From positions 1 through 52,186 of the forward strand of contig JAYUUO010000061.1 of assembly GCA_043754515.1 (NCBI GenBank): a DNA stretch of 52,186 nucleotides, given 5' to 3'. The first letter of the stretch is position 1, and every line of letters starts with the position of its first letter. Below the pieces are notes generated by a model, which did no database searches, was not told where the DNA came from, and saw only the letters and a list, made by a program, of their open reading frames with translations. Of the stretch, positions 221 to 14,124 are shown piece by piece. The stretch comes from Armatimonadota bacterium (GTDB lineage Bacteria > Armatimonadota > Armatimonadia > Armatimonadales > Armatimonadaceae). Position numbers and translations under genes: made by a program.

Positions 221-583
221 TCAGATCCCTTGTAGCCAACGCATCAGTTGCAACCCTTCGACACCGGTGTTTGCCGTGCTATTGGTCATGTCGTTCTCGA
301 TGTCCGCGCCCCAGATACGGATGTATTCGACGTCGCCATCGGGAGCGATGTATACGGTGATCTTGCGTTCCCCTCTCCACCACTCCAGAACGACCTCCCC
401 CTGTGCGCTCGCCGATACGTGCGGCGTAGGTAAGGAGACACCATCGCTCGCCGCCGTCTTGAATAATTTCATCTCCCATCGGATCGCCCGCGTAATGGCA
501 TCGAGCATGGGCTTCGCGAAGCCTTCGCCGTTCCATCCCTCGGGGAGTTCACTCAGCGCGATCAGGCATCTGTATAATTTCGT
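221..583 (-). pseudogene. Conserved hypothetical protein, probably 5'-truncated (LSELPEGWNGEG..P / PHVSASAQGEVVLEWW motifs)
   Basis: Track ORF 221..508 continues in frame upstream to a TGA at 584-586 through protein-like TKLYRCLIALSELPEGWNGEGFAKP, with no ATG, GTG or TTG in that extension. Confidence 0.55.
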
Positions 584-627: not shown

Positions 628-3600
628 GTTTCCATCCCACACTGGTTCGATTAGAGGAGGCGACATCGAGTGGTATTTTCGGCTCTAGAAACTCGTTTCC
701 ATCCCACACTGGTTCGATTAGAGGCCTTATACAGGATCGCTGTTCTAGTCTCCCATGCGGCGTTTCCATCCCACACTGGTTCGATTAGAGGACGCAGATG
801 CGGTGCAGTCTACTGTAATAGTGGTCGTGTTTCCATCCCACACTGGTTCGATTAGAGGGTGTTTGTCCGACCGCGTTCTTTTACACTGTGCTGGGGTTTC
901 CATCCCACACTGGTTCGATTAGAGGCGCTCGCCCAGTCGGATGGATCGGTTTCGCCCGCGACGGTGCGTTTCCATCCCACACTGGTTCGATTAGAGGTCC
1001 CTTTGCCGTTCACGGGAAACCGTCCCGGTATGAAGTTTCCATCCCACACTGGTTCGATTAGAGGACGGGCTAGAGGGCAATGTGTGCCGCGTTCGGTGGA
1101 CAGTTTCCATCCCACACTGGTTCGATTAGAGGAGTGCGGAAATCGCGCGTATGACCACCTATTCCTACGGTTTCCATCCCACACTGGTTCGATTAGAGGA
1201 AGCGTCAAGTGAGGCAAAGTGGGGGGAATCTTTGGTGTTTCCATCCCACACTGGTTCGATTAGAGGTATGAACAAAGGGGCGGCAAACGGCTACGCGGCT
1301 CTCGGGTGTTTCCATCCCACACTGGTTCGATTAGAGGGAGGGACTGATTGATGCAGGAAATGATAATCAACATGGTTTCCATCCCACACTGGTTCGATTA
1401 GAGGTGCGAGTGTCGGCGCGGTCGTATCAGCAGGATTCGAGGGTTTCCATCCCACACTGGTTCGATTAGAGGTCTGATCCACTGCCGCATCCTTAGCCCG
1501 CGAAAGATGTTTCCATCCCACACTGGTTCGATTAGAGGATTAATAGATTTGACAGGCAATGTTATCGGTAACTACAGTTTCCATCCCACACTGGTTCGAT
1601 TAGAGGTGTCTTATGGAGCATTTCGGCACGAAGAGTCAAATAGAGTTTCCATCCCACACTGGTTCGATTAGAGGGTGACGGCTATTATTTGCGTGGGGTC
1701 GGGCTACAGTTTCCATCCCACACTGGTTCGATTAGAGGTTTATTCTCTAGTATCTGCTGGTCTCTATCGAATCGTTTCCATCCCACACTGGTTCGATTAG
1801 AGGCATGCTTTGCGCGAGTGACGCACGCTCGGAGAGCATTGTTTCCATCCCACACTGGTTCGATTAGAGGACGCGTCTGCAACGGGGCTACTGCGGTTCC
1901 TGCCGGAGTTTCCATCCCACACTGGTTCGATTAGAGGGGGTTATCCCTTTGCATCACATCACCGGCCACAAGGGTTTCCATCCCACACTGGTTCGATTAG
2001 AGGCGCGTTCTCCGTCATGATGTTGTCAATCGAGGTGACGTTTCCATCCCACACTGGTTCGATTAGAGGCTTCACGTTCGCGCTGGACGCGCTAGGCGAG
2101 ACGCGTTTCCATCCCACACTGGTTCGATTAGAGGCCTGCAACTCTTCAGCCTGTTTCCTCAGATCAAAGGTTTCCATCCCACACTGGTTCGATTAGAGGC
2201 ATGGCGAACGTGTGTACATCCCCTGGGTCAGATACCGTTTCCATCCCACACTGGTTCGATTAGAGGGCCGACCCGTTTTTACTCACCTGCGATAATGGCA
2301 CCTGTTTCCATCCCACACTGGTTCGATTAGAGGTTGGGGCGATTTCTCTGGGCCCGCCGGTTTTTGCTCCGTTTCCATCCCACACTGGTTCGATTAGAGA
2401 AGAAAACGTGCTAGAAGGGGGATTTCTGTATGGATGGTTTCCATCCCACACTGGTTCGATTAGAGTTGGGATACCCGATACCCGCGACAAGTTTTTCAAG
2501 TTCGTTTCCATCCCACACTGGTTCGATTAGAGTAGTCTGACTGTTTCGCGGATTGCAGGTTTTCCGAGGGAGTTTCCATCCCACACTGGTTCGATTAGAG
2601 GCGCCCGATATAGGCGAGGCCGGTGCGCAAGACCCAGTTTCCATCCCACACTGGTTCGATTAGAGGAAGTTCGATACCGGCTTTCAGTGCGCGAAGTGAC
2701 TGTTTCCATCCCACACTGGTTCGATTAGAGGTGTCCGAGTGCGCCCGCCTAGTCCGCGCCCGAATCTCGGTTTCCATCCCACACTGGTTCGATTAGAGGC
2801 CTTCACGTTCGCGCTGGACGCGCTAGGCGAGATGCGTTTCCATCCCACACTGGTTCGATTAGAGGCAATCTGCGCGTCCACGGGGTCGGGGCTAGCGAAA
2901 GTGTTTCCATCCCACACTGGTTCGATTAGAGGCATGGTCAGCAAAAGCGGCCTCCTCGGTTGCTTCGACGGCAGTTTCCATCCCACACTGGTTCGATTAG
3001 AGGCCCGTAATCCGGCACGTAGCCCGAATCGGGAAACCCGGGTTTCCATCCCACACTGGTTCGATTAGAGGTAACCCGGCAACCGGCGACGCAAAGATCG
3101 TCTCCACGGTTTCCATCCCACACTGGTTCGATTAGAGGGCGGGGACATGGACACCGGCACGGGCGGTGTTGGTGGTCTGATCACTGGTTTCCATCCCACA
3201 CTGGTTCGATTAGAGGTTGGCCAAGTGCTCCGAACAGTGCGTTATTCGAATCGTGTTTCCATCCCACACTGGTTCGATTAGAGGCCGTCTCCACGTACTG
3301 CATTGGGCTGTCCATACGAGGTTTCCATCCCACACTGGTTCGATTAGAGGCCTGCTTTAGTTGCTCCTGTATCTTGCTCACGGCGGTTTCCATCCCACAC
3401 TGGTTCGATTAGAGGATGGGGAAGGCACAGAAATACGTTTGGGCAATTGACCGTTTCCATCCCACACTGGTTCGATTAGAGGCGTGACTGTGAACGTGTC
3501 CAGCCTCCCGATAATTGGTTTCCATCCCACACTGGTTCGATTAGAGGCAGGGGGTACGCCCCGCCGAACTATTCCCGCGCTACGGTTTCCATCCCACACT

Positions 3601-5372
3601 GGTTCGATTAGAGGTATAGAGTCTGCGCCGAGCCGATAGCAGAGGATGCAGTTTCCATCCCACACTGGTTCGATTAGAGGCCCTATCCGGTTGCATGTCC
3701 GATAACCCGTACATATCGTTTCCATCCCACACTGGTTCGATTAGAGGTAGAGCGTCAAGGTGTGGAACGGGCGGTGAACAAGTTGTTTCCATCCCACACT
3801 GGTTCGATTAGAGGGTCCAGACGGCGAGGAAGCGACGCGCACGCAAAAGGAGGTTTCCATCCCACACTGGTTCGATTAGAGGACTGCGGGACTCGACAAG
3901 GCACGTTTTGTTTGAAGCGGTTTCCATCCCACACTGGTTCGATTAGAGGTAGTAGCCTGGAGCCATTACGTAGCGTTTGCCGCCCTTGTTTCCATCCCAC
4001 ACTGGTTCGATTAGAGGCTTGATAACAACTTGCCGCTCATCAAGGTTTGGGACGAGTTTCCATCCCACACTGGTTCGATTAGAGGGGGGCGCATAGATAT
4101 ATCCGTGATCGCCGGCGGCAGTTTCCATCCCACACTGGTTCGATTAGAGGTCGCGAACGCCGCGTGGGTGGTGAACGTCACGCGCACGCTGGGGTTTCCA
4201 TCCCACACTGGTTCGATTAGAGGGAGGTCGCGGGCGTACCTTGCAATGACGCGGCATAGTTTCCATCCCACACTGGTTCGATTAGAGGGTGTCAAGGACT
4301 GCCGACGACGACTCAAAGAACATGTTTCCATCCCACACTGGTTCGATTAGAGGGAGCATCAGGCCGATATGCCGAACGTCCGTTTTCAAAAGTTTCCATC
4401 CCACACTGGTTCGATTAGAGGCCCGATGCCAACATCACTCGCAATGTCTGTAAATCTCGTTTCCATCCCACACTGGTTCGATTAGAGGGGTGCGAGAATA
4501 CCCCCGTCCCGTGATCTGTCTGATTGTTTCCATCCCACACTGGTTCGATTAGAGGTTGCAATCCTTCACCGTTTAGGGAGAGTCCTCTGCGAAGTTTCCA
4601 TCCCACACTGGTTCGATTAGAGGTGCCCTTGTTGATGCCGGGGTGGAGGGTGTGGTCCAATGTTTCCATCCCACACTGGTTCGATTAGAGGGCGCAACGG
4701 AGGCCGGCATGCCAACCATAACGAAAAAGTTTCCATCCCACACTGGTTCGATTAGAGGGCTCATCTGGAACCTGATCCGCGACGAGCCGAAGGGGTTTCC
4801 ATCCCACACTGGTTCGATTAGAGGGCGGGGATAATGAACGACTTCCAAATATGCGAGCGGTGGTTTCCATCCCACACTGGTTCGATTAGAGGCCATGTCC
4901 GAGCGGTCGCCTGTAATGCGCCCGCCAAACGGCAGTTTCCATCCCACACTGGTTCGATTAGATGATTACCGACTAGATGAACAATATCGCAGACATAGAA
5001 TAGTTTCCATCCCACACTGGTTCGATTAGAGGGGTGGTTTCTCGGAGCTGATCGCGGGGGAAGGTACAGTGTTTCCATCCCACACTGGTTCGATTAGAGG
5101 GCGCGTCAACGCGTACCCGTCAAGCCCGGACGGAAGCGGTTTCCATCCCACACTGGTTCGATTAGAGGGCGCCTGTAATGGGTGTGCCTGGCACATGCGC
5201 TGGCGGGTTTCCATCCCACACTGGTTCGATTAGAGGCAGCAGGTGAACGTGGTCGCCCCAGCACCGGCACCACCGTTTCCATCCCACACTGGTTCGATTA
5301 GAGGCTCCATTGACTGGAACAGAGCGAGCACTTCGTTCACTAGTTTCCATCCCACACTGGTTCGATTAGAGG
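628..5372 (-). CRISPR. CRISPR array, 71 repeats and 70 spacers; 30-nt repeat GTTTCCATCCCACACTGGTTCGATTAGAGG on + (CCTCTAATCGAACCAGTGTGGGATGGAAAC as transcribed)
   Basis: Repeats counted by hand from 628 to 5343. Spacers are 34-48 nt, mostly 35-38. Minus orientation is inferred from the ATGGAAAC 3' end (I-B-like ATTGAAAC handle) and the cas2-side leader. Confidence 0.98.
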
Positions 5373-5581
5373 CCCGAATCTTGACGCCTTTGCTTCCGCG
5401 ACCGCTACCCATAGTACCTCTCTTCTCGGTGCTCTGCTCGACAGCGAGAGTTTCCGTGCATTTTGCCTCGAAATCGTCGTCGGCCTCACTCGTGGCGTTG
5501 CACTACCGGGGTCCGACGACGCCTGGCCCGCCACTTTTCGCGCGTGGGTTTGTCCCCCTCCTGGTCTGTGTCCGACCATGA
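5373..5581 (-). promoter_or_regulatory. CRISPR leader
   Basis: 209-bp gap between the cas2 stop and the first repeat. Contains a 9-bp inverted repeat (CGTCGTCGG 5475-5483 / CCGACGACG 5513-5521) and a -10-like TACTAT on the minus strand (5416-5411). Confidence 0.75.
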
Positions 5582-5845
5582 TTATAGGAAGTTCGTGATC
5601 GGGAAACGCTCGACCCCCATCACCTGGCGATCCGCGAACCGGGCCTCGCGTAGCACCCAAAACAGCACCGAGTCCTTCTCCTCGACGATGATCTTCAGGA
5701 GGCCCGCTTTGAGCCGGGCGAACCGCGCCTCAGTGATGTCGCCCTCGAACACCGAGTTCTGTATCCGCGTCAGGTACGTGCGCAGGTAATTGCACACCCT
5801 CCCGACCCGATCCTCGCCTACATCGTACACCAATATGACGTGCAA
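5582..5845 (-). CDS. cas2: CRISPR-associated endonuclease Cas2
   Basis: 87 aa; ILVYDV and RIQNSVFEG motifs; TTG start with upstream AAAGGA. Confidence 0.97.
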   Translation of the reverse strand: MHVILVYDVGEDRVGRVCNYLRTYLTRIQNSVFEGDITEARFARLKAGLLKIIVEEKDSVLFWVLREARFADRQVMGVERFPITNFL

Positions 5846-5872: not shown

Positions 5873-7126
5873 CTACCACCAGGCGCGGAACGCTTTGAAG
5901 GTTTCCAGACCCGTCAGGTGGCGGATCAGCTTGTAGCAATCGAGGCGGATCAGATGGCGGTACGTTACCGAACGCCCCAGCCGGCGGTGCTTGATCGTCG
6001 TGCCGAGCCGCTTCTCCATCTCGTTCAGGAACAGCTTCTTGCCGTCGTCCGTCAGGAAACAGCCATCTGTCCCCCGGTCGAAATGGCTTCGCTTCAGCTG
6101 GCCCGTGTTGAGCAGACGGAAGATCGCCCGGTCAACGATCAGCGGCTTGAATATCTCCGACAGATCCAGCGCGAGGGAGAAGCGGCGTACGCCCGGCTCG
6201 TGCAGGAACGAGATCGTCGGCGTTAGCTGCGTGCGGTACAACTCGGAGAGGCAGACGGAGTATAAGAAGCCGTTGCCGAACGAGATCAGCGAGTTGATTT
6301 CGTTGTCGGGCGGGCGGCGCACCCGGCGCGTGAACGCCCAGTCGCCGACCAGCAGGTGCCCCCACGCCGCGTAGTACCGCTCCCGGATTTTCCCCTCAAT
6401 ACCGAGCAGTGACGCGACGGTTGTTTGCCGGTCAATTGCGTCCGCTAACTTCTCAATAGTCAGACGCACGCGCCCCAGTTCCACGCCCGCGTCTGGGTCG
6501 CCGGTGTCCGAGTCGGTCGCGAAGGCGAGGGTATCCGCTCCGATGTTTACAGGCTCGCTGGGCGTGTCCGGGTCATCGGTGCCGGGCGGCGCGAACGGGT
6601 CCGTGTCGCCGTCCTCGACCGCATCGGTGAACAGCGCGGCGTCCACCGCACCCTCGACATCGGCGTCGGTCGGGATCGCCGACATGGGCACCGCGTCCGT
6701 GCCGACTTCTCCGGGCGGCTCGACGTCGGTCGTGCCTGACTTGCCGCGCCGCCGCTCGTAGTACAGGACGTTGCGCAGGAGCGAGTGCGCGGACGCCCGA
6801 ACGAACTCCTGTGCCAGCGCGACGCGTTTGGTCTCGGTTCCGTAGTGCTCGGCTTGCCGTACGAGCAGGAAGCCGCTATGCAGGTAGTCGCGCGGGTAGA
6901 AACTGCCGGAATAGAAGCCGTAGTAGTTGAAAACGTGCAGGGTGATGCGCTTCTGTGCGAGGAAGTTGAGCAGGCGCGTGTTCAGGTCAATCTCGCCGTA
7001 CAGGTACATCGTCTCAATGTTCTCGATGGGGAGCGGCGTTTTTTTGCCCTCCGCGTTCTCGATATAGACCGTGTTCTTCTCGCGCCGGACACGCCCGTTC
7101 GACAGCACATAGTAGTTTCGTGACAT
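5873..7126 (-). CDS. cas1: CRISPR-associated integrase Cas1, type I-B-like, with an 85-aa acidic insertion
   Basis: Motifs FNYYGFYSGSFYP, LLGIEG, RRPPDNEINSLISFGN, ISFLHEP, SLALDLSEIFKP, C-terminal WW. ATG at 7126 preferred over the track TTG at 7138. Confidence 0.97.
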   Translation of the reverse strand: MSRNYYVLSNGRVRREKNTVYIENAEGKKTPLPIENIETMYLYGEIDLNTRLLNFLAQKRITLHVFNYYGFYSGSFYPRDYLHSGFLLVRQAEHYGTETKRVALAQEFVRASAHSLLRNVLYYERRRGKSGTTDVEPPGEVGTDAVPMSAIPTDADVEGAVDAALFTDAVEDGDTDPFAPPGTDDPDTPSEPVNIGADTLAFATDSDTGDPDAGVELGRVRLTIEKLADAIDRQTTVASLLGIEGKIRERYYAAWGHLLVGDWAFTRRVRRPPDNEINSLISFGNGFLYSVCLSELYRTQLTPTISFLHEPGVRRFSLALDLSEIFKPLIVDRAIFRLLNTGQLKRSHFDRGTDGCFLTDDGKKLFLNEMEKRLGTTIKHRRLGRSVTYRHLIRLDCYKLIRHLTGLETFKAFRAWW

Positions 7127-7160: not shown

Positions 7161-7730
7161 CTAGCCCCAGCACAGATCGTTGTAGGCGCACTTTTTACAG
7201 ATGCCCATCGGCTCCGGCACCGGGGGCGGGATCGGCGCGGCGCGGGCGTGTTCGAGTTGGATCAGCGTTTCCGCCATCTCCCGCTCATCGTCCGGGGTGA
7301 GTGTTACCGCCTCGCGACGCTTCTGCGCGGGGTAGTCAATTACGCCCTCCTTGACAACGCCTTTGACGTGCTTCAGGTAGTAGAGGTAGTAGAGAAGCTG
7401 CATACGGGTCGCGGCATAGGTGCGGCTCCCGCCCCGGCTCTTTTTGATCTCGTGGACCGCGCCGTCATCGGTGAAGTCAATGCGGAGCAGATCATCAATC
7501 AGAACCTCCTTATGCGACTTGCGGGTGTACGTTTCCTCATGGAGCAGGGTGCCGAGCGCGACGTTCTCCTGCCCGTCGGACGCCGAAGTGCCGCCCGCGT
7601 GCTCCTGATCGAGGCCGTGGGCGTACCACCAGTGCTTGCGCTGGCAGAGGATGAAGTAGAAGAGTTCAGTGCCACCGAGGCGGAGGTCGGCGGGCGACTT
7701 TTCGTCGGGGGCGGTTTCGTCGTCCAACAT
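7161..7730 (-). CDS. cas4: CRISPR-associated exonuclease Cas4
   Basis: N-terminal CQRK cysteine, RIDF..HEIKKS RecB-like motif, QLLYYL, C-terminal CKKCAYNDLC Fe-S ligands. Confidence 0.96.
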   Translation of the reverse strand: MLDDETAPDEKSPADLRLGGTELFYFILCQRKHWWYAHGLDQEHAGGTSASDGQENVALGTLLHEETYTRKSHKEVLIDDLLRIDFTDDGAVHEIKKSRGGSRTYAATRMQLLYYLYYLKHVKGVVKEGVIDYPAQKRREAVTLTPDDEREMAETLIQLEHARAAPIPPPVPEPMGICKKCAYNDLCWG

Positions 7731-7733
7731 CGG

Positions 7734-9965
7734 TTAGTCCTCCAATCCGGGGAATTGAACACCCCTGTCCGAGTAGTAGTGTTGCGTGATAATGTGGATC
7801 TTTTCTTCATCGAGTTCACGCTTCGCCTCGTCGTCGCCGATCAGTATTGTCTGCTCCTCTAACCAACTGTTCTTCATAGCGTCATTGAAAGTGTAAACAG
7901 GTATGTTGATGGCACGAGGCTGGGCGTACTCCCGAAACGCCATCCATGAGGGAAAATGTGTTTTAGCGTCAATGGCATCCATACTGTCTCCGGACCACTC
8001 AGCGTAGATAGTCCGCTGTGGTCCGATGTCGCGGCAACTCCATTCCTCGTCCTCGTCAGCATCTATCGCCATTTGACGCATGGGAACAATCAGCCAGTTG
8101 TTGACGCAGTTTTCTTCCAACTTAACGCGGTTCATTTTGACGCGTTCGGTGTCTTCCGCTACCGAGGGATACAAGGCGTCAACCATAGTGACTAGTTGTT
8201 CACGGGTATATTCCCCTGCTTCGAATACCAGGTCAGTTTGTGTGAGGGCATCGGCGGCTGTCCATCCGCGCCCGGAGCGGTACTCCCCATACGGGGCCGG
8301 GTAGGGTTCTCCCTTCCTTAAGGGGTTGATGATGGTGATTTCGCCGACATTGTCGGCGAAGCGAGACAGCCGCCCGATGCGCTGAACGAGCCGGTCCAGC
8401 GGGGCGAGGTCGGAGATCATACGGTCCGCACTGATATTGACCGACAGTTCACCGATTTGAGTGAGAACGGCGATCCCGTGTTGCGTCCCGCTCTCCCACG
8501 CCTCCTTGCCTAGCATAGCCAGAAGTTCGCCCTCAATGCGTTTCTTGTCGGTCTCGGTGAAGCGACTGTGGTACAGAACGACATCTTCGAAGCCGTTGTC
8601 GGTCAGATAAGCAAAGTATGCTTGCGCCCGCGCCACGGTGTTGGCATAGATGATCAAAGGCTCGCGGTTCTTACCTTGCTCTAGCAGTTCAGATACGTCT
8701 TCGGGCTTCTCAACGCGCGACTCATGCCGGATGACTCGGCACCGAACGTCCTCCGCCTTATCTGTGTCCTCGACAATGGCTTCAATTGCATAGCCAGAAC
8801 GGGCGTAGAGTTGGCGAAACGAATCAGGGATAGTCGCACTCATGATCAGCACCGGGACATCCAGCAGACGAAGAGCACGGAGCAGAACAACGATGTTAGC
8901 CTGCGTAAAGGCGTCGTAAAAATCGGATTCATCAATCACGACACAGGCGTTCGCCATCCCCCAAAAAATGGCATGGTGGTCCTCGCGCCGTCCGGTGAGC
9001 GAGATGCACAGGTGATCAATCGTGGTCACCGTGATAGGCGTTTCGAGTAGCCGCGCCAGTTCGTGTTGTTTCTGAGCAAAATCGCTCTTATCGTCCCGCT
9101 GAATCCACGCGCTGGAGTGGTACACCCCTGTGCTGCTCAGGGTCCGCGCGGTCGCAATTGCTAGGGCGGACGCGGTGAAGCGCGTCGGCATGGCGATCAC
9201 AAGGCGGTCTGCACGTCCATGCTCGATCTGATGTTTCGCCCACAGGAGAGCGGCATCGGTTTTCCCGGAGCCAGTCGGGGCGCGAAGAATGCCGACCGGC
9301 TCCTTATACAAATCGGCGACCGTGATTTGTACGCCGCGCTTTTGCCACGCCTTCGGAAACGTATATGAGAACGTGTCGAACTTTGGTAGAGTCGCCTTCG
9401 CTTCCTTTGCGCTAGCACGATGATCGAAGAGTTGAAGGAGGGATCGGATGCCGCTGAAACGGTACCGCTCCGCGATGGCTTCATCAAAGGCTCCGTAATC
9501 CATCGTTCCGTTTAGCGTGAGCAACCCTTCCCAAAGGGTAGCGAATTTTCCGCCGTCGTCGGTTTGCCACCGATTGGCGTGGCGGTGGCTCAGTTTACTG
9601 TGGTGCGCCGCAACCGCGACATGTACGCTGGGCGCGAGTTGTCGCCCCGCGTCCCGCGCACGACGGAGAGAATCCATCTCATGACGAATCCCAGTTTGCC
9701 GCAGGTTCGCCCCCGTTTTCTTTCCCTTCGTACGAATATATTCGGCGTTATCCTTGAGACATGCTGATTGCCAAGCGGGATGTTTCTTCCCTTGATCGTG
9801 CCAATCTATTGCGCTTTGAAGCAAGGCGAATAGATCTTCGCCCGTACGTTTGTGATACTTCACCGCTACGTTGGGGCGGGCGGTGAAGTATTCGTTGGAT
9901 TGCTCGTGCAAGTGCTGTGTGTGGTCGGCAAGTGTGATGCCGCTTGGCTTGGCGAGTATAGACAT
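7734..9965 (-). CDS. cas3: CRISPR-associated helicase/nuclease Cas3 (HD + SF2)
   Basis: Starts MSILAKPSGITLADHT at 9965. HD motifs WHDQGK, AHH and DHRAS; Walker A APTGSGKT; IDESD; MSAT; YHSRF; QRIGRLSR. Confidence 0.95.
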   Translation of the reverse strand: MSILAKPSGITLADHTQHLHEQSNEYFTARPNVAVKYHKRTGEDLFALLQSAIDWHDQGKKHPAWQSACLKDNAEYIRTKGKKTGANLRQTGIRHEMDSLRRARDAGRQLAPSVHVAVAAHHSKLSHRHANRWQTDDGGKFATLWEGLLTLNGTMDYGAFDEAIAERYRFSGIRSLLQLFDHRASAKEAKATLPKFDTFSYTFPKAWQKRGVQITVADLYKEPVGILRAPTGSGKTDAALLWAKHQIEHGRADRLVIAMPTRFTASALAIATARTLSSTGVYHSSAWIQRDDKSDFAQKQHELARLLETPITVTTIDHLCISLTGRREDHHAIFWGMANACVVIDESDFYDAFTQANIVVLLRALRLLDVPVLIMSATIPDSFRQLYARSGYAIEAIVEDTDKAEDVRCRVIRHESRVEKPEDVSELLEQGKNREPLIIYANTVARAQAYFAYLTDNGFEDVVLYHSRFTETDKKRIEGELLAMLGKEAWESGTQHGIAVLTQIGELSVNISADRMISDLAPLDRLVQRIGRLSRFADNVGEITIINPLRKGEPYPAPYGEYRSGRGWTAADALTQTDLVFEAGEYTREQLVTMVDALYPSVAEDTERVKMNRVKLEENCVNNWLIVPMRQMAIDADEDEEWSCRDIGPQRTIYAEWSGDSMDAIDAKTHFPSWMAFREYAQPRAINIPVYTFNDAMKNSWLEEQTILIGDDEAKRELDEEKIHIITQHYYSDRGVQFPGLED

Positions 9966-9975
9966 GGTTGTCCGA

Positions 9976-10914
9976 TTATTTACTAGCAGCCGCGAATGCT
10001 TCAGTTGTTGTGACCGGCGCGTCTGGCGCGGGGTCGAACAGTTCGGCAACACTCAAAAAACCGAGTGCCTTTTGATACGCCATTGCCACGCTGTCCGCGT
10101 TTGAAGAGGTGTCATCGCCGAAGAAGACGGTTCCTCCCCGCCCCTCAATCTCGGCGATCATGTTTTTTTGCTCGGTTTCCTCTACATCCTGCTTGAAGTA
10201 GCGGCACGCTTTGCGAGACAGGCGCGTGTCGAACGCGATGACAACCTTTTGCGGCTCAGCGGAAGTAGCATTGCGGGCGTTGTTTGCGTATTCCGTGAGT
10301 GCGGAAGTGGCTTCTAGGGCAAGCCGGATGCGCCGCCGCCGCTCGGTTTCGTTAGCAAACCGTGCGTACATGGTTTCTAGATGTACTCCAGCAACGTTGC
10401 CAGCTGAACCATACTTGTAGTATTTGCGAAACGACACTGCCCCCACGTCAATGTGAAAACTCATCACCATCAGATCATCCTGCGAAAACTCGCGGGTCGC
10501 GAGTGCCTGTCCTTTACTGTCTGCGTTTTGGGTGACTTTGAGACGAATTAACAGGTCGCGCCCGACCTCACTGTTGTTACGGGCTACTGCTGGAGTCGCG
10601 GTGACTGGGGCGGATCGCCGCCCGCTGTAGGATTCTTGGCTGGTATGTAGGAAGCCGCCGAGGTCGGCGCGGAGGTCGGTTTCGACTTCCGCAGAGATGC
10701 CATCGCCGTTGGTAACACGGGTATTGGGGTTGTCGTTAAGCCCGTCAATCGCGGAAAACAGCGCATGGCGTTGCTTCTGCCCAGAGATGTAAACGCGCCC
10801 ATCGGGGCGGCGTTTGATTGACGAGGCGTTGCCGAGAATCTTCTCGCCGCCGTTCGCGATGTGATCACTCATCGGAGCGATTGCAGTGACAAGGATGCCT
10901 TTGATGGTTGACAT
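9976..10914 (-). CDS. cas7: Cas7 backbone subunit, type I-PGING (Csp1-like)
   Basis: HIANGGEKILGNASSIK, VYISGQKQRHALF and DLRADLGGF motifs recalled from Csp1/DevR-like Cas7; position between cas8 and cas3. Confidence 0.88.
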   Translation of the reverse strand: MSTIKGILVTAIAPMSDHIANGGEKILGNASSIKRRPDGRVYISGQKQRHALFSAIDGLNDNPNTRVTNGDGISAEVETDLRADLGGFLHTSQESYSGRRSAPVTATPAVARNNSEVGRDLLIRLKVTQNADSKGQALATREFSQDDLMVMSFHIDVGAVSFRKYYKYGSAGNVAGVHLETMYARFANETERRRRIRLALEATSALTEYANNARNATSAEPQKVVIAFDTRLSRKACRYFKQDVEETEQKNMIAEIEGRGGTVFFGDDTSSNADSVAMAYQKALGFLSVAELFDPAPDAPVTTTEAFAAASK

Positions 10915-10926
10915 AATGTGTATTAG

Positions 10927-11391
10927 TTACTTTCCAGAAGTGCTTTGTAGTTCGGTCGCGCTAACAGCGGGATTATCGTCTTCACTTGATCGCGGCGTGT
11001 CGGCTTCGAGGGGGTCGGCTTCCGCCTTCTTCGTGCGAACGGATTGCAGGCGCATATACGCCACCAGCATGTTTTGCGCCTGTGGTAAGAATTGCATTCC
11101 CCCTGTGAGGGTAGCGTCATAAAACGCCTGCGCTTCGGGAGGCGCGTCACGCTCCAGTAAGCGTCCAGCGCGAACGGAAACACGACACAGCATGTCAGTC
11201 GGGTCTTTCGCGCTTAACACCGCGCTCTCGAACTCGGCTAGTAGTTTCGCCTTGTCCCGGCGCAGAATCCGCGCCTCGACCGGAGCATCGCCGTGTGATT
11301 CCTTCGCCGCGAAATATGCCGCAGTGTTGATCCACTGACCGAGGACGCGGGCGGCATCTACCACGGGTTCGGGTATTTTGTTGTTGTCCAT
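10927..11391 (-). CDS. Putative internally translated small subunit Cas11 (154 aa), in frame within cas8
   Basis: In-frame ATG at 11391 with GGAAGG 8 nt upstream, at the start of the C-terminal helical domain. Confidence 0.6.
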   Translation of the reverse strand: MDNNKIPEPVVDAARVLGQWINTAAYFAAKESHGDAPVEARILRRDKAKLLAEFESAVLSAKDPTDMLCRVSVRAGRLLERDAPPEAQAFYDATLTGGMQFLPQAQNMLVAYMRLQSVRTKKAEADPLEADTPRSSEDDNPAVSATELQSTSGK

Positions 11392-12549
11392 AAAGAAAGC
11401 CTTCCAGAGAGGGAGTAATGACGGGGCGTATTCGGTGCGAAACGCCAGAAAGTCGCGGAGCGAGGGCGTGTCGAAACTTTGTAGGAATCGCGCCGCCATC
11501 AAAAAGAACAGCCGGTAGTCATTGTCGGAACGATCTATAAGCTGTGCTTCCGCGTCCTTGTAGAACCGAGAGCGGAAGTACAGGTCATCAACGATCTGCC
11601 GCAGTTTGGCCGAGCGCGCCAGTCCGACGACGTGATGCGAAAACAGCGCGACTTTGATACCGTCGTAGCTGACGATATACAGCGGGCATTCGGTGAGCGA
11701 TTCTAAAACGGCCAGAGCACGTTTCCTATTTTCGGATTTGGCGACGCTTGCCCATTCGCCAATAGCCGCCAGTACACCGACCGCACCGAACGCTTCCGTA
11801 TTACGGGGAGCATTCGGGTAGTTACCACTACAGATCAAAGGGCGTTTGTAGGTGCGTGCCGCCTTCTTTTTTGCGTCGTCTGCCGGGTTATAAGTAGCCG
11901 TCATCCCGAAGTCGCCGCGACTGCTTACCATGTAGCGAAACACCACCACGAAATCCGAGAGAGCGGCTAGTGGTAAGTCAGGAATAACACTTGTGTATCG
12001 TAGGTCGGTAGCATCACGGATGACGAGCGCAGCAGGTTTATCAGACGTCAGTGTAGCGATGGTAGCGCAGGCTTTTTCTAGAAGTGTGCCGGTAGGATTT
12101 TGCTTGTCGCCAGTGCGCCCATTGTTAAATTCACCGGTGACTGGACTTAGAGAGCGTTTGAGTTCCACGCCACCGCGTAGTAAATCCCCGCCCGCTTTTA
12201 TTTCGTCAACAAGAGCATCGGCGTTTTTGAATGTTTCTTTGGAACTGCCGTCACTTGCTATCACGTGAGGGTAGAGGTACACGCCCTCTTTTGCACCACC
12301 AATCGTGCCCTCTCGAAGGCGTTCCGCAGTGACAACGGAGAATCGAGTTTCGTCCTGCAACTTCGGGTTGTCGTTCGTCTCCATACGGAAACGCTCCAAG
12401 CCTGCCTCGATAGCTCCGGCGAGCGCGGCGCGAAGTCCTGCTTCGGTCGGGTTGTCACAGTACTCCTCGCGGTTCACGGCGACGGCTAGCCCGTAGCGCG
12501 AGAATGGGTGAAGCGGAATAATAGACAGAGCGACTAGTGTTGTATCCAT
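10927..12549 (-). CDS. cas8: Large subunit Cas8, type I-PGING (Csp2-like)
   Basis: About 540 aa between cas5 and cas7; HPFSRYGLA N-terminus, GNYPNAP and GAVGVLAAIGEW motifs, helical C-terminus. Confidence 0.75.
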   Translation of the reverse strand: MDTTLVALSIIPLHPFSRYGLAVAVNREEYCDNPTEAGLRAALAGAIEAGLERFRMETNDNPKLQDETRFSVVTAERLREGTIGGAKEGVYLYPHVIASDGSSKETFKNADALVDEIKAGGDLLRGGVELKRSLSPVTGEFNNGRTGDKQNPTGTLLEKACATIATLTSDKPAALVIRDATDLRYTSVIPDLPLAALSDFVVVFRYMVSSRGDFGMTATYNPADDAKKKAARTYKRPLICSGNYPNAPRNTEAFGAVGVLAAIGEWASVAKSENRKRALAVLESLTECPLYIVSYDGIKVALFSHHVVGLARSAKLRQIVDDLYFRSRFYKDAEAQLIDRSDNDYRLFFLMAARFLQSFDTPSLRDFLAFRTEYAPSLLPLWKAFFMDNNKIPEPVVDAARVLGQWINTAAYFAAKESHGDAPVEARILRRDKAKLLAEFESAVLSAKDPTDMLCRVSVRAGRLLERDAPPEAQAFYDATLTGGMQFLPQAQNMLVAYMRLQSVRTKKAEADPLEADTPRSSEDDNPAVSATELQSTSGK

Positions 12550-13337
12550 GACGCCTCCACCCAACCGTCGCTACTGCCGAGGTAGAGCGGAGCGGCCGGG
12601 TTCTGTACACTCTCGGCAAGAAGTGCCGCGAGCGGTACCGACGTTTCGACGGCAACGACAAACACTGCTTTCGCCTCGGTTTCGACGTACTCGCGCATAG
12701 AGGGTGATGGGTAATAATGCGGCAGGTATGGGTTAACGGCGACGGTTGAAATTGTGTCGCCGCGCTGAAAATCGTATATTGCCTGCGCGTCGTTTCGTCC
12801 TGTGTCGTTCACCGTTGTTTTTGCCACCCCTTTCGGAAGTGTCTTACAGAAAGCAATCTCGTTTTTAAGCGGTATTAGTTCACTACTGTATTCACGACTA
12901 CCATTTGCCGATTCCATGCCTTTAGTGCGAGCAAGTCGTCCCCAGTAATCGCTAAAGCGTAGCGCGACCCGTGCGATTTCGACGGAGCCGAAGCGCACAT
13001 GATGTTGCAACAGCGGTTGGAACCCCGACTGTGATGAGGCGGGCGCGAGACGTAAACGCCGCTTCAATTCATCCATCACCTTTTTGCGGTGTTCCATGCT
13101 GACGTGCCAGCCGAGCGCATTTTCGAGCAGTCCGTAAAGCATAGCAGGTGTCGGAGTATCATCCGACCGGTAGTACTTCCCCGGCATCCGCGTCACGATT
13201 GATAGTGGCGCGAGTGGTTCGACCACCAGCTCGGCTGACACGGAAAACTCGGGGGTCTCGTCAAGGAGTGCGAACACATTCCCCGGGCGCGCAACCTCCA
13301 GCGGTTCGTCAAAGTTTAGCAAGAGCAGATCACGCAC
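12534..13337 (-). CDS. cas5: Cas5, type I-PGING (Cas5p-like)
   Basis: EPLAPLSIV..PGKYYRS...PT..MLYGLLENALGWH, REYV, and C-terminal PLYLGSSDGWV. Confidence 0.88.
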   Translation of the reverse strand: MRDLLLLNFDEPLEVARPGNVFALLDETPEFSVSAELVVEPLAPLSIVTRMPGKYYRSDDTPTPAMLYGLLENALGWHVSMEHRKKVMDELKRRLRLAPASSQSGFQPLLQHHVRFGSVEIARVALRFSDYWGRLARTKGMESANGSREYSSELIPLKNEIAFCKTLPKGVAKTTVNDTGRNDAQAIYDFQRGDTISTVAVNPYLPHYYPSPSMREYVETEAKAVFVVAVETSVPLAALLAESVQNPAAPLYLGSSDGWVEASWIQH

Positions 13338-14124
13338 GGGCGTCCACCTCCAGCATCCCCATTCCGCTCGAGTTTTTCTCCCCCAGCCCGCACTCGTACG
13401 CCACCCGGATCAGTTCCGGCGACCCCGACAGCGTCAGGGGCGCGAGCGTGCCGATCACGTCTATCGGGCCGCCCGCGCCCGGCAACGTCACCTTCTTCGT
13501 GCCGCCGTGCGGGGCGCGGGCGAGGTACGACTCCGACAGCGTCATCGTCAGCGACGCGTCCGCCGGCTCCACGCCGTGCAGGGCGCGGTACTTGCGCACC
13601 ACGTTCGCCCGCACCGCGTCCGACAACTCCCCGCCGTCCGAAGGCCGCAGGTAGCGGGCTGTTTTGTGGGTGTCCGACGGCACGGAAGCGACTATTGGCG
13701 TCAGGCACGTGAACCCCATCGCGCCCGAGAACGTCGGGTCGGGCAGGCCGTCCAGCGCGACCAGCGTGAAGCGTTGCCCGCCGATCACGAACGCGTCGCT
13801 CTTGTCGAGAAGCCCCGTCACCTCGTGGCGCAGGAACTCTTCCTTTGGCGAGGAGATCGTCCACGTCACCACGCCCGGCGCGATCTCCACCTGCGCCCCG
13901 ACGAGCCGGCGGTTACTCTTCGGGACACGGAGCGCGGAGAACGTGAACAGCTTGTAGCGGCGCGTGTCGCCCGCATCCGGGACGTAGCCGACATCATGCA
14001 GGAAACTCGCGTACGCCGCGTCGCTACGCCCGAGGTGGTCGAATATCGCGCCGCGCAGAAGGTGGTAGTGATCAATCGGTAGACGGACGAACGAATCGTT
14101 CCGCAATGTGGCCTGAATCCGCAA
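13330..14124 (-). CDS. cas6: CRISPR-associated endoribonuclease Cas6
   Basis: FLHDVGY, YKLFTFS, WTISSP, LTPIV and glycine-rich loop GLGEKNSSGMG; TTG start with AAGGAG RBS. Confidence 0.95.
   Translation of the reverse strand: MRIQATLRNDSFVRLPIDHYHLLRGAIFDHLGRSDAAYASFLHDVGYVPDAGDTRRYKLFTFSALRVPKSNRRLVGAQVEIAPGVVTWTISSPKEEFLRHEVTGLLDKSDAFVIGGQRFTLVALDGLPDPTFSGAMGFTCLTPIVASVPSDTHKTARYLRPSDGGELSDAVRANVVRKYRALHGVEPADASLTMTLSESYLARAPHGGTKKVTLPGAGGPIDVIGTLAPLTLSGSPELIRVAYECGLGEKNSSGMGMLEVDARA

Follow-up and report, generated by a model that had tools for sequence, protein, structure and literature searches.

The locus studied here raises the question of what a long acidic segment is doing inside Cas1, the most conserved of the Cas proteins. 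It lies on an Armatimonadota contig that was analyzed over its whole stretch of 52,186 nucleotides (hereafter the window), and an initial annotation made from the letters alone had proposed that the segment might be a DNA mimic or a regulatory loop.

The insert-bearing Cas1 and its locus

The cas1 gene (5873..7126, minus strand) encodes an intact 417-residue protein of the type I-B-like Hmari/Tneap group, as judged by its profile match, its fold and its invariant residues. The TIGR03641 profile gave 413 bits against a cut-off of 304.1, in two stretches that are split at the insert. The Cas1 model aligned with P. horikoshii Cas1 (4wj0_A) with a Z score of 39.2 and an rmsd of 1.7 Å over 315 of 315 residues and has the two-domain Cas1 fold. 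E244, H309, D321 and E324, which by homology are probably the catalytic metal-binding residues, were invariant across 212 rows (150 long and 62 short Cas1). By this test the window protein is a member of the type I-B Cas1 family. It resembles the known members (TIGR03641; 4WJ0, 7EI1, 4XTK and 2YZS) in score, fold, catalytic residues and cas4-cas1-cas2-array layout, but the solved chains are 315-326 residues long and have no insert. The frame and the catalytic motifs on both sides of the insert are therefore intact, as had been annotated, and the contrast first noted between 417 residues and the usual 330 or so holds: minus the insert the protein has 332 residues, exactly as its closest insert-less relative (L084). 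Three positions before the catalytic Glu, residue 241 (6404-6406) is Arg in 114 of the 150 insert-bearers and Met in 59 of the 62 short proteins; in the window's own subclade it is Met or Leu. One 612-residue Cas4-Cas1 product (P0012), whose Cas4 part has no C-terminal Cys cluster, was set aside and is probably a frameshift read-through, not a true fusion.

The insert (6485..6739, minus strand; residues 130-214) lies between helices 98-128 and 211-229. Translation of this interval in the cas1 frame bore out the composition first reported, 85 residues with 22 acidic ones (17 D and 5 E) and no K, R or H, together with 11 P, 9 G and 11 T. At the frequency of basic residues in the core (64/332), the chance of 85 residues without K/R/H is p ~1e-8. 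In the 5905 six-frame open frames of the same genome, five stretches of at least 60 residues, the Cas1 insert included, are free of K/R/H and contain at least 22% D/E, which makes such a stretch rare. At third codon positions the insert has a GC content of 0.86, against 0.84 for the remainder of the gene. Part of the insert is also present on contigs that two other studies obtained from close strains, with 12 extra in-frame nucleotides (at low depth) between two of the motifs described below, M1 and M2. Since relatives keep the insert and these independent contigs hold part of it, it is not an assembly error.

An in-frame insertion within a conserved gene could also be an intein, an intron, an RNA element, an overlapping gene or an artefact of assembly, and an 85-codon antisense frame does overlap the insert (6504-6761), but we find this group of explanations hardly credible. 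Inteins end in His-Asn/Gln followed by Cys, Ser or Thr. The insert ends in DPDAG followed by V, holds no His and gave no match to HINT or another Pfam domain, and the earlier statement that no intein ends are present is thus confirmed. RNA structure and an intron were rejected on a folding z score of 0.11 against shuffles and on the synonymous variation of the motif codons. A conserved antisense gene was rejected because each antisense frame is broken by stops in some relatives, and an assembly artefact because the insert stands in frame in more than 130 relatives.

Pfam gave no family at E≤0.1 for the insert, and none at E≤1 for 22 inserts of the family. Searching 1.84 billion representatives with an insert-only profile led to 12 matches, 11 of which were Cas1 or Cas1 fragments; the sole other match was a repeat protein that aligns on IPTD-like units, and the search revealed no other protein family from which the motifs could have come. 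The ESM Atlas gave no usable match for residues 125-220, which says nothing on novelty or absence. These searches bear on the idea that the loop sets the level of Cas1, as a P/E/D/S/T-rich target of proteases or modification, or that it screens off phage inhibitors of adaptation. The P-, D/E- and S/T-rich composition, with basic residues on the flanks, would resemble that of PEST segments. We nevertheless hold this idea to be very unlikely, as invariance falls on G, E, D and P rather than on S or T and the profile found one non-Cas1 carrier, the repeat protein, among its 12 matches.

The genes are arranged in the order cas6-cas5p-cas8c-cas7-cas3-cas4-cas1-cas2-leader-array. By its profile scores the effector module, cas6-cas5p-cas8c/Csp2-cas7/Csp1-cas3 (7734..14124, minus strand), is probably of the I-PGING type, with Csp1 scoring 369 against a cut-off of 340.65, and Csp2 (272) and Cas5p (92.9) being best matches that stay below their cut-offs. 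Third-position GC is 0.59-0.64 in cas3, cas7, cas8 and cas5 (7734-13337) versus 0.82-0.88 in cas6, cas4, cas1 and cas2, a gap which suggests that the effector module was separately acquired. The cas4 gene (7161..7730, minus strand) matched Pfam Cas_Cas4 with 129 bits and TIGR00372 with 58.9, under the cut-off of 65. The cas2 gene (5582..5845, minus strand) encodes 87 residues from a TTG start, and by eye the Cas2 proteins of the insert clade have no obvious extra basic feature. Among 80 neighbours at 18 loci, the effectors found beside an insert-bearing Cas1 are of the I-PGING, I-B Cst2, I-B Csh2, III-A and III-B types, together with a type III RAMP gene. Because the effector type varies so freely, Cascade or Cas3 is unlikely to be the partner of the loop and a target within the adaptation module is favoured; the initial proposal of Cas3 as a binding partner is weakened accordingly. 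At one of these loci (L014:11202-16276, plus strand) cas1 and cas2 are separated by a type III-A module, and two type I modules lie upstream. At another (L003:4166-7504, plus strand) a 1112-residue Cas3-like frame, in which the helicase part precedes the HD part, stands beside the insert-bearing cas1 and is followed by small genes.

Adaptation at the locus

The CRISPR array (628..5372, minus strand) comprises 71 repeats of 30 nt and 70 spacers of 34-48 nt, and is separated from cas2 by a presumed leader (5373-5581). It had been called long and uniform; it is long, but less uniform than that, with 63 of the 70 spacers at 35-38 nt. No second cas1 and no further array with this repeat was found in the assembly, which is 92.7% complete. 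We scanned for protospacers on seven contigs picked by BLAST matches among 313, and found matches for 7 of the 70 spacers, at six sites spread over three further contigs of the same assembly (C172, C87 and C260). Six of these seven spacers have a flush 5'-CCG PAM and the seventh is slipped by one base; the 5' CCG PAMs support the minus-strand orientation of the array. A single cas1, 71 repeats and flush PAMs agree with the earlier suggestion that adaptation worked with the insert in place, and indicate indirectly that the intact catalytic core makes PAM-correct spacers. All three matched contigs are likely to be prophage, or mobile DNA that was co-binned. On inspection by eye, C172 contains recombinase-like and methylase-like frames, and C87 holds one of 2146 aa. 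The four spacer targets on C172 are all on one strand, as priming would give.

Two spacers, s21 and s32 (2070-2104 and 2800-2835), derive from one protospacer; they coincide at the PAM end, and at the far end one is 1 nt longer than the other. They represent independent acquisitions with variable far-end trimming. This is the pattern that would arise if the PAM end were set by Cas4 and the opposite end trimmed by host exonucleases, as is described for the type I-C Cas4-Cas1-Cas2 system of Alkalihalobacillus halodurans in the part of that report consulted (8D3L; bioRxiv 10.1101/2022.05.30.494039). Both systems have a stand-alone Cas4. In the type I-C system, as far as the same source goes, the gate is on Cas4, Cas1 has 343 residues without an acidic insert and the PAM is different.

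Spacer lengths were also compared between arrays. The median standard deviation was 2.01 for 11 arrays with a long Cas1, versus 1.18 for 11 with a short Cas1 from the same phylum and 0.92 for 36 others, and the fraction of spacers of at least 40 nt was 0.09, 0.01 and 0, respectively. Within the phylum the p90-p10 spread did not differ (3.6 versus 3.0, p=0.24), and the spread of spacer lengths did not track insert length (rho -0.05). Two sister arrays with 12 spacers each had standard deviations of 0.71 and 1.85. Longer and more variable spacers with a long Cas1 are therefore taken as a lead, the shift being modest and all the rows having one origin. In two Aenigmatarchaeota loci with a short Cas1 (L070 and L078) spacers are long and variable (standard deviation 2.4-2.7), and broad spacer lengths thus need no insert. 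In the array of the window, four repeats carry A or T in place of G at their last plus-strand base; three of them, at 2371, 2437 and 2504, are neighbours (2371-2533), and the fourth is at 4935 (4935-4964). A 95-aa frame lies past the distal end of the array (221-508, minus strand).

Distribution, ancestry and conservation of the insert

To see how far the insert extends, 8000 candidates were scored, giving 6091 matches. A long acidic segment was present at this site in all of the best 120, the window protein included. As a ranking on the whole protein could favour insert-bearers, the ranking was redone on residues 222-417 alone, and this C-terminal core likewise yielded insert-bearers only. 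Pooling both rankings led to 139 proteins; in 137 of them the segment exceeds 45 aa, and the remaining two are fragments whose start falls within the insert. The insert is thus found well beyond this assembly. Of 223 genome loci 80 were kept, 17 with a long segment (16 named Armatimonadota and one named 'bacterium') and 63 with a short one. Among 401 genomes of the phylum, 59 had a Cas1 over the TIGR03641 cut-off, which matched in two pieces in 23 cases and in one piece in 36. In the window's own order all nine Cas1 match in two pieces, and all 17 two-piece loci retrieved have an acidic segment of 60-121 aa. The segment at this turn measures 7-20 aa in short type I-B Cas1 and 60-122 aa in the insert clade.

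A tree of 79 rows was then built after removal of the insert columns, leaving out about 50 short rows and drawn with a midpoint root. The 27 long rows form one branch (bootstrap 98, SH-aLRT 96) whose sister consists of three short Cas1 from the same phylum (100/99). Insert-bearing rows reach down to about 50% identity, and the named members of the branch are Armatimonadota. On the simplest reading of the tree, the insert would have been gained once in an Armatimonadota Cas1 lineage and never lost. Within this branch, 22 rows form a crown (100/99) in which M1 and M2 are present, whereas the five basal rows are acidic but have neither. As far as the sequences record it, this shows that the charge came first, as a variable acidic stretch, and that M1 and M2 came later, in the crown.

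The 137 unique full inserts span 66-122 aa with a median of 82, about 15 flanking residues being counted in. Their interior contains 27% D/E and 2.3% K/R/H, for a net charge of -12 to -33. With the basal members acidic too, the charge is conserved, as an insert of functional importance had been expected to show. The description 'base-free' fits the window protein and not the family, in which 26 of the 137 inserts have no K or R. M1 (EPPGEVG, residues 136-142; 6701..6721, minus strand) has an invariant G139, with P137 and E140 kept in 96 of 99 rows. M2 (IPTDADVEGAVD, residues 151-162; 6641..6676, minus strand) falls on a predicted short helix (155-164) and has an invariant D162 and E158 in 98 of 99 rows. 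M3 (DPF, residues 176-178; 6593..6601, minus strand) is followed in most of the family by M4, [FW][DEGS], which is absent from the window's subclade. With patterns drawn up after viewing the sequences, M1 as [ED]PxG[EQA][IV] was found in 130 of the 137 inserts versus 0.5% of shuffles, M2 as Px[DA]xxxExx[IV]D in 114 versus 0.3%, M3 as DP[LF] in 107 versus 7.5% and M4 in 92 versus 0.7%. The spacing between motifs varies (9-32 aa from M1 to M2, 7-37 aa from M2 to M3). Residues 186-211 (6494..6571, minus strand) form an extension largely private to the window protein, with gaps in 83-98 of 99 rows and a pLDDT of 47 at 191-200, and are probably an unconstrained linker.

Uncorrected pN/pS over 22 loci was 0.36 in the motifs and 0.86 in the linkers, a contrast that is partly circular because the motif columns were picked for conservation. 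The motif codons do vary synonymously, and together with their low pN/pS this points to selection on the protein. Within the aligned family, selection is thus shown to retain charge and motif residues and not length or linker sequence. Conserved motifs within the loop argue for specific contacts and not for charge alone. The charge-based reading first given to the loop accordingly stands as regards the charge, which is kept, but it overlooked these motifs, which would point to contacts of a more specific kind.

These data also allow another possibility to be weighed, in which the insert is a tolerated expansion at a permissive helix-helix turn, from which basic residues have been purged because they disturb DNA binding and in which the motifs just park the loop. 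Its length varies about twofold with in-frame additions between close strains, the linker pN/pS is 0.86, short Cas1 also differ from one another by a few residues at this turn (7-20 aa), and insert-less I-B Cas1 are common in the phylum (36 of the 59 genomes over the cut-off). However, none of the 139 proteins or of the 27 tree rows, which reach down to about 50% identity, shows a loss; D+E is held at about 27%, which goes beyond a mere absence of K and R; and M1 and M2, once gained, became fixed. We therefore regard a tolerated expansion as unlikely.

Possible roles of the acidic loop

With a clade-only alignment, AlphaFold2 gave the insert a pLDDT of 41-59 (48-59 for residues 151-180). When 53 short Cas1 were added to the alignment, the single-chain model reached an overall pLDDT of 88, with values of 78 at residues 151-160 (M2), 70 at 161-170 and 75 at 171-180 (M3), against 62 in M1 and 53 and 47 in the linkers. 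Apart from a ten-residue helix (155-164) the insert was modelled as coil, including residues 171-180. This model suggests that M2 and M3 may rest on the Cas1 surface. Folded DNA mimics of the Ocr type have a folded surface with ordered rows of carboxylates. A complex prediction of residues 131-182 with an insert-less Cas1 dimer and Cas4 scored 0.01 against a mark of 0.32 and is evidence neither way. As for charge, the net charge of the whole protein falls from +9.1 to -2.6. The core carries +10 to +18 in the crown and +7 to +17 in the basal rows; the three sisters have +3, +4 and +7. The gain of the insert largely coincides with that of K246 and R110, R337 is found in the crown only, and W263 and E276 also count among the gained residues. 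Core and insert charge are weakly correlated (rho -0.29, 150 related rows).

The reading that we favour, with a probability of roughly 45%, takes the insert for a regulatory loop, polyanionic and tethered, that is pinned by its motifs and damps the non-specific DNA binding of Cas1 itself. M2, as a short helix, and M3 would pin the loop onto the Cas1 surface, so that the acidic linkers could cover basic DNA-binding surfaces and compete there with weakly bound non-specific DNA, until a properly shaped prespacer or leader-repeat target displaces them. Less off-target binding and integration and a faster escape from decoy DNA would be expected and, as a possible side effect, an altered trimming of 3' overhangs leading to longer and more variable spacers. 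A polyanion acting on Cas1's own surfaces is favoured by four observations: the charge came first, it is kept while length changes, the effectors are interchangeable, and the pLDDT of the motifs rises in the model of Cas1 alone. Competition with DNA is physically plausible, since Cas1 contacts the prespacer backbone via basic clamp and channel residues, according to the part of the source consulted (PMC7969031). The core, more basic than in the sisters, would fit this reading too. On the other hand, the invariant G, P and E residues would be equally apt for a specific contact with a protein, insert-less outgroups also have core charges of +10 to +20 (within a span of +3 to +20) and the sisters are three only, long D/E runs like those of the HMGB1 tail are missing from the crown insert, and the clade-only model gave the insert a pLDDT of 41-59 only.

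Two precedents, each known to us from part of the source, are close to a polyanionic loop of this kind. D/E-rich regions such as the HMGB1 tail autoinhibit and speed target search among decoys (PMC10250230), and like the Cas1 insert they are large, negative, largely disordered and tethered to a basic DNA-binding protein. These regions are eukaryotic, terminal and made of consecutive D/E runs, whereas the Cas1 insert is internal, with dispersed D/E (~27%) and fixed motifs, and sits on an integrase; that it works as an autoinhibitory acidic region is proposed by analogy. GyrA's acidic C-terminal tail is likewise an unstructured acidic segment on a bacterial DNA enzyme, and controls DNA engagement and wrapping (PMC11626157), but it is terminal, belongs to a topoisomerase and has no sequence relation to the Cas1 insert that we could find.

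The same motifs could instead be docking sites for a partner, with the acidic linkers as flexible tethers. Cas4, held or timed on the integrase, would be the likeliest partner, and other candidates would be Cas2, the second Cas1 dimer or a host factor of the Armatimonadota, for example an exonuclease that trims. Short linear binding motifs are typically built this way, with fixed motifs at variable distances, and the restriction of the lineage to one host phylum fits a host factor. Moreover, the crown Cas4 gained a Gly-rich loop on the same branch as the motifs. This insertion of 5-9 aa after QEH, which brings the distance from CxxK to the G that precedes the conserved His to at least 24 residues versus 19, was seen in 19 fully readable crown copies (the window included) and in the truncated L006, and is absent from the basal L016 and the sisters. 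It falls just before a segment whose weak alignment places it at the PAM channel and helix alpha4 of the type I-C Cas4, as far as the structure report was available to us (bioRxiv 10.1101/2022.05.30.494039). Against docking, the co-gain in Cas1 and Cas4 is one event on one branch, and the rise in M2 and M3 pLDDT was obtained with Cas1 alone. The acidic insert is also older than the motifs and occurs in basal loci with type III effectors that have no cas4 within the DNA fetched (four of the five basal loci). Docking is thus a serious but rather doubtful alternative. The loci listed with the Cas4 loop are the window, L001-L015, L111, L113, L114, L121 and L125.

A fairly unlikely extension of the polyanionic-loop reading would make Cas1 a self-gated integrase, in which the motif-anchored polyanion fills the path of the prespacer overhang or of the target DNA until the co-gained loop of Cas4 delivers a PAM-checked prespacer and lifts it. 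If this were true, PAM licensing would be coupled to integration, the altered end-trimming would give the longer and broader spacers of many of these arrays, and Cas1 would have a built-in regulatory domain acquired in two visible steps, charge and then motifs.

Among titles and the beginnings of abstracts, mainly of open papers, we found no description of an acidic insert in Cas1, a scope that could overlook an insert mentioned in the supplement of a classification paper. The insert is a clade-wide, selected and motif-bearing acidic loop that would be new for this known enzyme. In the literature consulted in part, the avoidance of binding to or integration into the wrong DNA by Cas1 is usually credited to outside factors, namely IHF, HU, histones, Cas4 and DnaK. 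The insert-less sisters, the charge-only basal members and the motif-bearing crown provide within one phylum a natural series for a clean test of polyanion tuning, including its effect on integrase specificity, acquisition rate and spacer length. If such tuning is true, the loop would be a portable element for tuning Cas1-Cas2 recorders. Finally, the Cas12l (Cas-pi) loci of Armatimonadetes (PMC9724661, bioRxiv 10.1101/2022.12.16.519550) share with the present locus the phylum, a C-rich 5' PAM and cas1, cas2 and cas4; in the parts of these reports consulted, which do not mention a Cas1 insert, they differ by a Class 2 effector, a cas1-cas2-cas4 order and 37-bp repeats.
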